Shown here in pieces: positions 40,339 through 64,000 of a stretch of 64,000 bases of DNA. Made by a program: the position numbers and the translations under genes. The notes below the pieces were generated by a model, which saw only the letters and a program-made list of their open reading frames with translations, was not told where the DNA came from and did not search any database. Position 1 is the stretch's first letter. The number at the start of each line of letters is the position of its first letter. The stretch lies in assembly GCF_003790525.1 (NCBI RefSeq), contig NZ_CP033635.1; one strand, 5' to 3'. This DNA is from Escherichia coli (GTDB lineage Bacteria > Pseudomonadota > Gammaproteobacteria > Enterobacterales > Enterobacteriaceae).

Positions 40339-40542
40339 TCTTCTGAATCACCGGGCGACAAAATATAACTGAGTTACAAATAAGTACCAGTCGAATGAGT
40401 ATTGTATTAAGAATTTTTGAGTATCGCTGATACAACCAGAAAGCAATGCTAGCGCAATATTATAGGGCCAGCAATTGAGATTATTAGCAAAAGCATGTTA
40501 AGAGTTAATCACCGAATTTATATATTAATTATAGTAAGGCAA

Positions 40543-40559
40543 TGAGCTATTTTTGATAG
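40543..40559 (+). repeat. 17-mer tgagctatttttgatag, copy 3 (1 mismatch)
   Basis: matches the motif upstream of both ilvN-uhpA islet genes; about 205 bp upstream of the setC start. Confidence 0.4.
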
Positions 40560-40724
40560 TAAAAATAAAACAAGTTGATTTGATATATTACATGAATAAA
40601 TTAATCTTGATGGCAGTCTGATTATTGGTGAAGTTTATAGGTCAGTTTTTTCGTCAGCGGTTAAAGAAATAGAATAGTCGTATAAAAAAGGGTGTGCAGA
40701 AGCGTGTAAAACAACATCTTCACC

Positions 40725-40925
40725 TTAATGGCGATACCGTTGGCTGAGAGTCAGCAGGGGGGCAAATCACCTGCAAATAAACACGGCGCATGCTGGCGCG
40801 AATATCGCGGATGCGTTCGAGGACAGAAGAACCGACAGGCGGATTCTTCAGTCGCTCATCGTCCATCACAAAACTTTTGATCAGGTATTCCTGAAGCCAG
40901 TAGAAAATATCTGGATTGACAGTAT
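40725..40925 (-). pseudogene. short gene remnant, possibly RhuM-family fragment
   Basis: minus-strand translation ...FYWLQEYLIKSFVMDDERLKNPPVGSSVLERIRDIRASMRRVYLQ... with no start codon; family assignment from memory only. Confidence 0.25.
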
Positions 40926-40959
40926 TACGAGGGGTTGGAGAACGTATGAAGAGGCAAAT

Positions 40960-40979
40960 TGGCGATCACAGGAGTCGAA
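40960..40979 (-). other. remnant of the tRNA-Sec (selC) 3-prime end, likely an island att repeat
   Basis: gatcacaggagtcgaa is the reverse complement of the selC 3-prime segment TTCGACTCCTGTGATC; no intact selC in the window. Confidence 0.55.
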
Positions 40980-41114
40980 TATGAATGTTAATGTTTTGAT
41001 TTTAAATGATTAATCTGTGTTGGATAAATGAGTAACCCCCATAAGAACCCCCAAATAACTTAGTGTAAGGGAATGAAGCTAAAATACACAATCGAATCAA
41101 TTCTTAGAGCTTTA

Positions 41115-60657: not shown

Positions 60658-60748
60658 AAGAACCGACCGCCGTATGTAGCCATTAAGCCAGTATTGGTAA
60701 CGTAGGTGCCCACCTTTTCAATGTACTGCGCCCCAAATCTTGGACATC

Positions 60749-61590
60749 CTATGAAAAATGTTTAAGTCGATATTGAACCGGACTCATACCATCGAGTTTC
60801 TCTTTAATGCGATGGTGATTGTAGTATTCAATGTAATCAATTATATCTTGCTTTAGATGATGTAACTTATTGTATTTATTTAGATAGTAACATTCTGATT
60901 TTAATGTACTAAAAAAGCTTTCCATTGCTGCATTATCTAAGCAGTTACCACGTCGGGACATGCTTTGTGTTATGCCATTATCACTCAACCAACGTTGCCA
61001 ACGAGGCATCTGATATTGCCACCCCTGATCACTATGCAACAAGGGCTTATCGTCTTTATTGAGTTGTTCTACCGCATCTAATAGCATGCTCTTTACCATT
61101 GATGCTAATGGGCGCTCAGTAAGGTTATATGAGACTATTTCTCCATTATACAGGTCCATGATTGGTGATAAATAGAGCTTCCTGCCATCGACCTTAAACT
61201 CAGTGACATCTGTTACCCACTTTTGATTTGGGCGGTCAGCATAAAATTGTCTCTTCAGTAAATTATTACAAGTTCGCCCCTGTTCTCCACGATAGGCACG
61301 GTACTTCTTGCGCCTGATAAGTGAGCTGATACCCAGTTCCTTCATTAACTTTCTGATGGTTTTACCATTAAGTAAAATGCCTCGTTACGGCAGGCAAGTC
61401 TGATGCGTCGATAACCATAACGCCCTTTATGCTGATGGTATATTCTCAATATTACTTGTTTAACAAGTTGATATGGATCTGGCGCATTAAGGCGTTTCAC
61501 GTGATAGTAAAATGTACTACGTGGCAAATCAGCGATAACCAGTAATTGTGATAATGGATGACATTGCCTTAACTCATTAATAATGATTAC
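60749..61590 (-). pseudogene. IS3-family transposase orfB (DDE integrase core) carrying an extra frameshift
   Basis: N-terminal part (stop at 61345) is in the -1 frame relative to orfA; the remainder continues in a third frame from an overlapping TAATG at 61343-61347. Confidence 0.7.
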
Positions 61591-62087
61591 TTTTTCTTTT
61601 GTTCCAATCGTAATTTTTCCTGAGCTAAGGCTTTCAGCTTTTTTAGATAAGCGTTCTCAACTCTCAGAAACTCAAGTTCTTCCCGTTCACTGATTGTCAG
61701 TTGTGTCGAACGATTTCGTTGATAAACAGCAGGAGTTTTCGGCCTCAAATCTTCCTTTTGTCCCTTCATCGAAAAATCAACCTCACTGTATTTTTTAATC
61801 CATTTGGATATGGTGTTAAAAGCAGGGATCCCATACTTCACTGCAGCTTCCCTTATAGAAAGAGAATTATCAATAACATCTCTGACCACATTCAATCTGA
61901 AGTTATCGTCATAACGTCTTTTTTGCCCAGTCAGTGTTTTTAATCCGTGCTTACGGTAAACATAAGCCCATTTCCTTACCGTGCTGGGGTCAATATTGTA
62001 CATTTTTCCAACAGACTTCAAACTCAGCTCACCTTCCAGGTATTTTTCTGATACTTCCCTTTTGAATTCTAATGAAAATTTGCTCAT
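61587..62087 (-). CDS. IS3-family transposase orfA (HTH, leucine zipper)
   Basis: 166 aa ending ...YLKKLKALAQEKLRLEQKKK, IS150 InsJ-like. Confidence 0.8.
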   Translation of the reverse strand: MSKFSLEFKREVSEKYLEGELSLKSVGKMYNIDPSTVRKWAYVYRKHGLKTLTGQKRRYDDNFRLNVVRDVIDNSLSIREAAVKYGIPAFNTISKWIKKYSEVDFSMKGQKEDLRPKTPAVYQRNRSTQLTISEREELEFLRVENAYLKKLKALAQEKLRLEQKKK

Positions 62088-62204
62088 ACGCTCCTCAGTT
62101 ACAGATCTGGTGTCTAACTATTGGGGCGCACTTCATCAAACTGGTGGACGCCTGTTATGGAGCAAAAACATTATCCGCAGAACCCCGCAGATCATTTTCA
62201 AATG

Positions 62205-62330
62205 AGTTAAACTTCAAATGGTTAAACTGGTTTTGCAACTAGGAGCCTCTGTTGCCCGTATTGCCCGGGAACACGATATCAATGATAACCTCCTGTTCAA
62301 ATGGCTCAGACTCTGGCAGAACGTAAGGTA
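62205..62330 (+). pseudogene. isolated fragment of a transposase HTH region (IS remnant)
   Basis: short frame encoding ...LVLQLGASVARIAREHDINDNLLFKWLRLWQNVR* with no full ORF. Confidence 0.3.
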
Positions 62331-63182
62331 AAGGGAGATGAAAAAGGCAATAGCAGAACTGAGTGACAGTGAAACCATTCTGGCGTACAGGGTTGGATGG
62401 TGAAACTGATAAAAAAACCCCTCTGAAAATTCTGTCAGAGGGGTGTAGTCAATAAGGGTGTCATATTCAACATGAAGATGTCTTCTGGGAATGTTTACAT
62501 AGCAAATGCTTTCACTCCGGTAATTAATTTCCGTGATTAACTGCTTTCGATCAATAAAGGAATTGCAAAAGTGTGATCTTGTTCACGACATTGTGGATGA
62601 TAATATGCCTGATGTCTGAATCCGGAAACAGTGATCTGGCGGTTTCATGTGAAGTTGACGGATAAAAAATCCGCACGACCAGACAGACGTGCGGTTTACG
62701 AAATTCGTAACAAGAGGCTTTTCTACGGATCACGTGGTGCGTGCCACGTGAAATTTTTGTAGCGCAAAATGTGTGATGTGTAAATACAAGGAAGGAAAAA
62801 AGTTAAATCGGTGGAAGTCCATGCCTGCCACATGTATGTCTGCATTCCTCGTTTTGAACAGAATTCTCACCAGACATCGTGAATTTCTCATTCAATCATC
62901 AGAGATATTACCCAGGATTTTTATTGTTTTGTGATAGCAGTACTTTAAATGTTCAGATGCTAAAATAAGCGCGCTTATTATAATTATAGTCATGATGTTT
63001 TATCTTTATGTATTTTAATGATTTTCTCGTCATTGCTTTTCTGCTGCTTAAATTGAGGGCGCATATTATACACAATAATATTCCTGGCATTATTAAATTA
63101 ATAAAAGAGGATTCTTATCACTGTATTTTTGCTCCGCACTACAGTTCTGGCTGGTGAAGTAATAATACAGGAGAATAACAGA

Positions 63183-64000
63183 ATGCTTAAAAGACGTGAT
63201 GCTTTTTTAAAGAAAAGCGCGCTGGCAGTGAGTGTGGCCCTGCTGCTCTCAGCTCAGGCTCAGGCTCAGGCTCAGGCTATTTTAATCGGACCGATTCAAC
63301 CTGGCGAACATAGTAGCTTTCTTGTTGGGGATTCAGTAGCTGGCCGTTCGTCTGGTGACATAAGAAATGTATGGTTGGTGGGTGATAATTCTTTTTTATT
63401 AGATTCAAACGGTAGTGTGCTTTTGGGGAATAATTCTGGTGTTGTGAGCTCTCCGGGAAGTGTGAGTCTGGGGCATGATGCACTTATTGCTGACTCTGAA
63501 TGGGGGACTGTTGCAGGAAAAGCAGCGTCACTTATTTCTTCTCGTCAGAGCTCGGCAATTGGTGCGTTTTCATCTGTGCAGGATTCTACCAGTTCTGTAG
63601 CTCTGGGCCATGGCTCACAGGTGTCGGGAGAAAATAACGTGGTATCTGTTGGTGCCGGGCCTGAGGGATATGGAGAGAGTGTCAAAGGAGCACCGGAAAC
63701 CCGCCGGATTATAAATGTTTCAGATGGTGTTAAGGATAGTGATGCGGCCACAAAAGGACAGATGGACAACGCCATTGCAGATGCTGTACGGGTGTCGGGG
63801 GATGCCCTGCGCGGTGAGATAGGTGGTGTATACAGAGATGCCCGTGCTCATACTGACAGTCAGGTTACGGCAGTACGTGATGAACTGAAGGCAGAGGGAG
63901 ACAGTCTGCGTGGTGAGATAGGTGGTGTATACAGAGATGCCCGTGCTCATACTGACAGTCAGGTCACAGCAGTACGTGATGAACTGAAGGCAGAGGGAGA
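63183..64000 (+). CDS. trimeric autotransporter adhesin (YadA-like), 5-prime part only (runs off window end)
   Basis: not in the ORF track (no stop in window); signal peptide MLKRRDAFLKKSALAVSVALLLSAQAQAQAQA then YadA-head-like Gly/Ser repeats (SVALG, NNSGVVSS) and repeated stalk segments. Confidence 0.7.
   Translation, partial: MLKRRDAFLKKSALAVSVALLLSAQAQAQAQAILIGPIQPGEHSSFLVGDSVAGRSSGDIRNVWLVGDNSFLLDSNGSVLLGNNSGVVSSPGSVSLGHDALIADSEWGTVAGKAASLISSRQSSAIGAFSSVQDSTSSVALGHGSQVSGENNVVSVGAGPEGYGESVKGAPETRRIINVSDGVKDSDAATKGQMDNAIADAVRVSGDALRGEIGGVYRDARAHTDSQVTAVRDELKAEGDSLRGEIGGVYRDARAHTDSQVTAVRDELKAEG
63796..64000 (+). repeat. 99-bp tandem repeat (33-aa stalk unit) inside the adhesin gene
   Basis: GDALRGEIGGVYRDARAHTDSQVTAVRDELKAE repeated, period 99 bp (ggtgagat at 63813 and 63912); array continues past the window. 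Confidence 0.7.

Follow-up and report, generated by a model that had tools for sequence, protein, structure and literature searches.

The integrase-distal part of a mosaic selC island in Escherichia coli, probably of the AGI-3/GI-pheV kind

We analyzed a stretch of 64,000 nucleotides from Escherichia coli (assembly GCF_003790525.1, contig NZ_CP033635.1; hereafter the window), whose right-hand part, beyond the gene setC, had been described in an earlier note as a mosaic island probably built next to selC by serial insertions. Positions 40980-64000 probably constitute the attR (integrase-distal) end of a selC island of the P4-integrase type, belonging to the modular AGI-3/GI-pheV kind of island found in extraintestinal pathogenic and avian pathogenic E. 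coli (ExPEC/APEC). The composite would have been assembled before it arrived at selC in this lineage. Its spread and diversification would have proceeded mainly by homologous recombination through a multi-copy backbone, by transposition of insertion sequences (ISs) and by IS-mediated deletion, with repeated site-specific insertion at selC probably not the main process.

The window comes from the E. coli chromosome, and its positions 36798-59320 are colinear at 98.3% identity with strain TUM9803 (yicS, nlpA, yicL, setC and onward). We surveyed 5426 complete E. coli genomes, the sample to which the genome counts below refer, and inspected about eight related loci closely. At least 80% of 40339-64000 is covered in 20 of these genomes, many of them poultry-derived; TUM9803 is the closest (99% covered, 98.9% identical). 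The left boundary of the island is marked by a degenerate copy of the selC 3' end, in the following setting:

39154-40338, minus strand: setC, core-genome flank (394-aa open reading frame [ORF], colinear with setC of TUM9803 and K-12)
40339-40959, no strand: setC-selC intergenic DNA, aligning base for base with K-12 up to the selC position
~40720-40909, minus strand: yicT/rhuM pseudogene fragment (yicT in K-12, a RhuM-family pseudogene in TUM9803)
40960-40979, minus strand: degenerate attR, a selC 3'-end copy with 20 of the 24 terminal nucleotides matched and GGAA deleted

This remnant of the attachment (att) site reads TGGC-GATCACAGGAGTCGAA and sits exactly where selC begins in K-12; thereafter the window diverges from K-12. 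The window contains its exact 16-mer a single time, where chance would give 0.03 occurrences. In TUM9803, the perfect 24-nt TGGCGGAAGATCACAGGAGTCGAA stands at the attR position and again as the 3' end of selC, while GGAA is missing from attR of both the window and E19035, an APEC strain of sequence type 95 (ST95). Owing to this 4-bp deletion, the full selC 3' end found no match in the window at up to three mismatches, and it was a shorter core that located the site. Because the remnant matches the selC end at the K-12 position of selC, we regard it as a degenerate attR and place the start of the island proper at ~40980. The deletion probably lowers or abolishes excision. The K-12 order is selC-yicT-setC with nothing between, and a K-12-like empty site, in which rhuM is directly followed by tRNA-Sec, is common among genomes; the yicT-att-DUF4942 junction, corresponding to the selC end of the island, is found in 681 of them. 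The left limit of 40339 given previously has therefore to be moved to ~40980, since 40339-40959 is intergenic DNA shared with K-12. Similarly, the att remnant and gene fragment that had been listed together as one module are both there, but the yicT/rhuM fragment is located between setC and att, occurs in K-12 too, and thus falls outside the present island. It is an older relic, which K-12 retains as well. SPI-3 reportedly carries rhuM next to selC, which agrees with this relic.

Neither an integrase nor an intact selC is in view, just as the earlier note had it. ARAGORN predicted no tRNA in the window, Rfam gave nothing in 30000-64000 at gathering thresholds, and a tblastn search of the window for an integrase relic with the selC integrase of TUM9803 returned a best E-value of 3.4. 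In the PGAP annotation of the near-identical TUM9803 stretch there are IS transposases only and no site-specific recombinases. That the island continues beyond the window is backed by two relatives. The TUM9803 island covers ~61.5 kb; it starts at setC and closes with a tyrosine integrase of 395 aa and tRNA-Sec, beyond which come yicJ and yicI. From the equivalent of the window end it continues for ~38 kb to its P4-type integrase and selC; E19035 carries a version of ~46 kb ending in the same integrase protein. From these close relatives we infer that integrase and selC would lie ~25-40 kb past the end of the window. The region has the marks of a genomic island: a boundary formed by a tRNA 3'-end repeat (the attL/selC end being outside the window), absence from the K-12 site, deviant composition, mobility genes, and modules shared with other tRNA loci.

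Inside this boundary, the island is a compositional mosaic. Its blocks are given below with their GC content and the GC content at third codon positions (GC3):

41115-47229, minus strand: yee/CP4-44-type backbone arm (tblastn against TUM9803 proteins, 98-100% identity); GC 0.50-0.575, GC3 0.54-0.68
47330-48553, plus strand: 407-aa orphan ORF; GC 0.34, GC3 0.31
48554-50135, no strand: ORF-free T-rich spacer (no ORF above 84 codons); GC of orphan and spacer 0.34-0.38
YagK-FinO block: GC 0.51-0.54, GC3 0.48-0.65
53959-59214: cassette of a LacI-family repressor, a phosphotransferase system (PTS) and a split transketolase; GC 0.40-0.49, GC3 0.36-0.46
59321-60635, minus strand: IS1414, IS256 family (NF033543, 429.9 bits against a cutoff of 150; 99.8% identical to IS1414 of TUM9803); GC 0.52, GC3 0.61
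60722-62135, minus strand: IS3-family element (TG...CA ends; NF033516 matches on both ORFs); GC 0.40, GC3 0.37-0.39
62144-62320, plus strand: older transposase remnant (IS scar) at a cargo junction (a frameshifted partial transposase in TUM9803, E19035, F11, E14033 and EC9952)
63183-64000, plus strand, running off the window: 5' part of a YadA-like trimeric autotransporter gene (by comparison with the TUM9803 homologue); GC3 0.36

The mosaic of modules that had been proposed is therefore real, both by composition (GC 0.34-0.575, GC3 0.31-0.68) and by comparison of relatives. The alternation of strands and the differences in base composition were seen as described, and the six components named (att remnant with gene fragment, CP4-like block with divergent cargo, alpA/YagK-like/FinO block, PTS-transketolase cassette, IS elements and adhesin gene) are all present at or near the positions assigned to them. 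The CP4-like and alpA/YagK-like/FinO blocks, however, are not two separate modules. Both exist, but together with the low-GC stretch between them they recur at several tRNA loci per genome, and therefore represent one conserved backbone rather than separate acquisitions. Positions 47300-50130 match 1878 genomes, at up to six places in each and mostly at 80-90% identity, and the junction from the Gp2-like (YagK) gene to the hypothetical gene that follows is unbroken in 511 genomes, with as many as 10 occurrences per genome.

The same ordered composite (yee arm, GTPase, orphan ORF, Gp2, AlpA, FinO, cassette, transposase scar, YadA) is found at another tRNA locus, pheV, in APEC strain E14033. There it adjoins yghD/gsp, with further cargo in addition to cassette, scar and YadA. 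EC9952 has this composite at pheV by yghD with the cassette deleted by IS1, and in APEC O2-211 and in E956, ~22 kb separate the cassette from the yghD junction. The yghD-DUF4942 junction, corresponding to the pheV end, occurs in 590 genomes. Moreover, identity to relatives changes in steps along the island. Identity of the window to F11 and E14033 is 83-95% over 43971-52174 but reaches 99.4% over 52257-59320, with the jump at ~52.2 kb; these two strains also carry a 9-kb IS2-ireA-IS256-IS3-YagK block, absent from the window, between positions 50962 and 50980. Compared with E19035, identity is 90% in the first 2.4 kb and 98.1% in the remainder, and E19035 lacks the DUF8835 gene. These steps point to recombination in the conserved multi-copy backbone. 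No internal copy of att was found in the window, nor in the TUM9803 island at up to three mismatches beyond its two terminal copies, the remaining matches being at chance level and outside any att context. The occurrence of the same composite at pheV, the identity steps, and the lack of an internal att or integrase relic together argue that the composite was pre-assembled before it reached selC. The two IS elements are the only demonstrable in-place insertions.

Certain observations weigh against this reading of 40980-64000. Integrase and selC both lie outside the window, and the continuation toward them is read from relatives alone. The identity steps could partly reflect differing selective constraint. 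An exact counterpart of the window is present in none of the complete genomes, the best reaching 98.9% with IS1414 placed differently. Finally, in GF4 (NZ_CP172217.1, 2771000-2783000) a tandem array is seen, in which the yee arm is followed by a ParD/RelE pair, a second integrase and an AAA-domain protein; accretion therefore does occur in this island family.

The serial insertions previously proposed are supported in the case of the two IS elements, whose target duplications are intact and whose empty sites are seen in relatives. For the large modules, which come without any internal att or integrase relic, the evidence points elsewhere. If separate elements had used the attB of selC in turn, pushing older ones toward setC, one would understand why base composition differs from block to block and why the yicT/rhuM fragment, outside attR and shared with K-12, resembles the relic of an earlier selC island; tandem islands are known in the family (GF4), and the AlpA/YagK set in mid-island may represent what was once the arm next to the integrase of an inner element, since decayed. 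We nevertheless consider such site-specific accretion unlikely, given that an internal att copy was found neither in the window nor in the TUM9803 island, that no tyrosine-integrase relic was found in the window, that the two backbone blocks co-occur as one unit at many loci, and that the same block order is seen at pheV, where selC att sites are irrelevant.

The opposite extreme would be a uniform island, taken from one donor in one acquisition and changed since by point mutation only. The 23-kb arrangement is indeed colinear at 98-99% identity in ~20 complete genomes, as such a history would have it. Its probability is nonetheless very small: neighboring genes range in GC3 from 0.31 to 0.68, Salmonella has an independent chromosomal counterpart of the cassette whose limits coincide exactly with the six genes, relatives differ by sharp identity steps and gene-sized indels, some copies carry the 9-kb IS2-ireA-IS256-IS3-YagK block at 50962/50980 and others do not, and the YadA allele is chimeric. 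We give still less credence to the notion that the region is ancestral E. coli DNA that K-12 has lost, and not an inserted island. The yicT relic in K-12 shows that deletions happened at this site, and many genomes hold IS1-deleted remnants of the cassette; yet a direct repeat of the selC 3' end delimits the region, relatives have an integrase at the opposite end, the K-12-like empty site is common, composition is heterogeneous and the IS load high, and other strains carry this DNA at pheV. We thus favor a pre-assembled composite diversified by recombination and IS activity, and describe its parts below.

The yee arm consists, in order, of DUF4942, DUF5983/DUF957, the CbtA toxin, the YeeU/CbeA antitoxin, DUF8835, DUF987, RadC/JAB, an antirestriction protein, DUF932 and a YeeP-like GTPase; its RadC and GTPase are supported by NCBIfam matches. 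Positions 41955-44740 show 88-96% nucleotide identity to yeeS-yeeW of the K-12 element CP4-44, and 71-73% to CP4-57. CP4-44 has the same yeeS-yeeT-cbeA-cbtA-yeeW order with a YeeP-type GTPase upstream. The GTPase, a pseudogene in CP4-44, is intact in the window, which also has DUF932, antirestriction, DUF8835 and DUF4942 genes in addition, whereas flu and yeeR of CP4-44 are missing from it. The start ATG of DUF4942 is lost, with an Ile codon at 41949-41951, and the other proteins of the arm are intact. This start loss, as well as a 1-nt deletion at 61379 in OrfB of the IS3-family element, is specific to this sequence; they are either real mutations or sequencing errors.

The block between the spacer and the cassette contains five genes:

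50136-50867, plus strand: YagK/YfjJ (inovirus Gp2-like) gene (PF11726, 3e-36; PF23343, 5e-9; PHROG replication-initiator families)
51212-51784, plus strand: 190-aa hypothetical backbone protein (93% identical to its TUM9803 homologue)
51853-52089, plus strand: AlpA-type helix-turn-helix excisionase/regulator (PF05930, 2.6e-10; PHROG excisionase families)
52290-52838, plus strand: UCP030791-family protein, 182 aa (100% identity to its TUM9803 namesake)
52856-53363, minus strand: FinO/ProQ-family gene, frameshifted (ProQ and FinO NCBIfam matches on a 114-aa piece)

The match of AlpA to TIGR01764 is weak, and the 190-aa protein has no family match. The FinO/ProQ frameshift is the same in the window and in every relative inspected, at selC and pheV alike, and is therefore an old lesion inherited with the cargo.

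The 407-aa orphan upstream of this block has no match in Pfam, NCBIfam, PADLOC or PHROG. Its homologues form only 16 clusters, from E. coli plus ~35%-identical proteins of Citrobacter and Klebsiella; it is conserved in about one third of E. coli genomes and has a Cys/His-rich N-terminal stretch. The AlphaFold model, built from a 9-sequence alignment, is poor (pLDDT 55.9). Within the adjoining spacer, we observed a non-coding core of ~300 nt (49421-49719) whose conservation far exceeds that of the backbone around it. When five copies with flanks of 82-97% identity were compared, 84-98% of the core columns proved invariant, and the substitutions had no codon periodicity. On one strand, the core contains GACGTT four times and TTCCTGA three times, either count being reached in 0 of 2000 shuffles, as well as invariant TTAAC-containing blocks. 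It is present but unannotated in 1854 genomes, at up to six places each. In most copies inspected it lies ~0.4 kb upstream of the Gp2-like gene, the distance being ~1.3 kb in ESY003, where an ORF is inserted.

Rfam gave only sub-threshold noise in 48400-50200. A structured RNA was considered for the core but is not supported on the plus strand, the one that was folded, where RNAalifold support was weak (-20.6 kcal/mol over 477 columns). Inverted repeats in the core are only distant and at chance level, with no local hairpin, and a 176-aa hypothetical protein of the E14033 spacer has no counterpart in the window. The core may be a protein-binding array or an origin-like region, both putative. 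A more specific candidate role, to which we assign a low probability, is that of an iteron-like origin or operator working with the Gp2-like protein and AlpA. If this were true, supposedly cryptic islands would retain a module for replication or excision control, and the core beside the Gp2-like gene is the sole item here that might repay further work. At ~49720-49740 there is a (TGATGG)n microsatellite whose copy number varies among island copies, with 2-3 units here and ~11 in F11.

The cassette, the metabolic cargo in view, is made up as follows:

53959-54978, minus strand: LacI-family (GntR/IdnR-like) repressor (family match, TUM9803 comparison)
55236-55679, plus strand: ascorbate-family PTS IIA (100% identical to TUM9803)
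55758-56030, plus strand: ascorbate-family PTS IIB (100% identical to TUM9803)
56053-57441, plus strand: ascorbate-family PTS IIC (NF009549, 989.5 bits against a cutoff of 890; 100% identical to TUM9803)
57438-58268, plus strand: split transketolase, N-terminal subunit (matches the N half of transketolase models)
58261-59214, plus strand: split transketolase, C-terminal subunit (matches the C half of transketolase models)

The best PDB match of the transketolase is 6YAK, a split-chain transketolase (3e-64). Judging from these families, the cargo most likely imports and phosphorylates a sugar or sugar acid and feeds the pentose-phosphate pathway via the split transketolase. The six genes are intact in 132 genomes, always on the chromosome, with 99.9-100% identity in the intact copies sampled; of 40 rows sampled from the 682 genomes with a match, 13 showed remnants truncated by IS1, as did EC9952.

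Salmonella enterica has the same six genes in the same order and orientation at its yfcD-yfcC locus near pta-ackA, which we take to be the tktC locus STM2340-STM2341. Papers confirm only a third transketolase, tktC, in Salmonella, and mention STM2340 in an unrelated paper alone. The N-terminal transketolase subunits are 88.8% identical in amino acids and the loci 76% identical in nucleotides over window positions 53958-59189 (~5.2 kb), with homology stopping exactly at the edges of the cassette. The Salmonella locus stands in core chromosomal context, whereas the cassette of the window is island cargo between the FinO pseudogene and IS scars. By sequence comparison, the cassette is xenologous to the Salmonella chromosomal locus, which shows an independent origin of the module; because of the divergence between the two, the donor was not Salmonella itself. 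The Salmonella record used here is labeled as a 0.5-Mb plasmid, with chromosomal gene content. Three Salmonella records of ~500 kb in the plasmid collection (e.g., NZ_CP148876.1) carry pta, ackA and yfc genes and resemble chromosome fragments. The tkt1 island of APEC O1 was rejected as a counterpart of the cassette: its Tkt1 is a single chain, and its position is between metE and ysgA. No description of a pheV/PTS/transketolase island turned up in a literature search.

Beyond the cassette, two IS elements have inserted recently, each with its target duplication intact. IS1414 is flanked by the 8-bp duplication TTTGGTTG at 59313-59320 and 60636-60643, and its empty target site is present in relatives (L004, TUM9803). 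The IS3-family element is flanked by TCAA at 60718-60721 and 62136-62139, with the uninterrupted target in relatives; its OrfB is broken, the deletion at 61379 being defined relative to TUM9803. The YadA-like gene follows the scar. The 272 aa encoded in the window are 78% identical to the N-terminal part of the TUM9803 homologue, which at full length has YadA_anchor (PF03895, 3.5e-16) and YadA_stalk domains, and the protein most likely mediates adhesion. The allele is a chimera, matching TUM9803 in its signal peptide and head but F11 and E14033 from about residue 180 onward, including the stalk repeats of 99 nt (33 aa) at 63807-64000. This points to intragenic recombination between adhesin alleles.

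Outside the island, on the other side of setC, we observed a 16-kb insert between nepI and yicS (20453-36798) that is absent from TUM9803 and K-12. It holds an ORF of 2933 aa (20659-29460), elsewhere annotated as the inverse autotransporter EaeX/Air, together with an EilA (HilA-like) regulator and SipB/SipD-like type III translocon and tip proteins. The insert is 100% identical in SMS-3-5, XDL, CM2 and others, is at least 80% covered in 27 genomes, and looks like the known eip/eilA/air islet.

Among described islands, LEE, PAI I-536, SHI-2 and SPI-3 share the selC attachment site with the island of the window but carry unrelated cargo; this part of the island has no genes for type III secretion, haemolysin or aerobactin. 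The resemblance to GI-pheV islands (including the ireA/pgt type and PAI I APEC-O1) is closer, with a modular build, recombinant yee module and conserved cargo in common; GI-pheV has a P4-type integrase, as the relative TUM9803 does at selC. They differ in the attachment site, which is pheV by yghD instead of selC by setC, and in the 9-kb IS2-ireA-IS256-IS3-YagK insert, which the pheV copies inspected carry and the window does not. GI-pheV has been described as modular, its yee and flu modules showing high single-nucleotide polymorphism density and recombination and its cargo modules high conservation (PMC11537424, Nhu et al. 2024), a pattern matched by the identity steps reported here, with a variable yee arm and conserved cargo. 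Modules of islands like these are known from pheV, selC and thrW (PMC5539235). We see in the window a further example of islands reshuffled via paralogous backbones at different tRNA loci together with IS activity, and no new principle. The island is real, mosaic and ordinary: its kind is already known, and near-identical copies exist in poultry and human strains.

The original paper on AGI-3 (2006, J Bacteriol 188:977; sequence AY857617) is said to describe a mosaic of five modules. AGI-3 is a selC island of 49.6 kb with genes for sugar transport and metabolism (PMC2704930), and its module 5, which holds agn43-yeeR-irmA, is shared with pheV and serX islands (PMC4807369); later papers give APEC BEN2908 as its host and include the fos locus in it. 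Like AGI-3, an island of avian/extraintestinal E. coli, the island of the window is inserted at selC, has cargo for sugar metabolism, and shares modules with other loci. Two further AGI-3 markers, the fos locus and aec-35 to aec-37, would be situated past the window end. Unlike in module 5 of AGI-3, there is no flu, yeeR or irmA between GTPase and RadC, the GTPase being followed directly by DUF932 and RadC. Likened through published descriptions and not by sequence, the island is thus of the same kind as AGI-3, and not AGI-3 itself. The practical value of the comparison lies in correct annotation: the region is to be recorded as that half of an AGI-3/GI-pheV-type selC island which lies on the attR side, with its boundary at ~40980.

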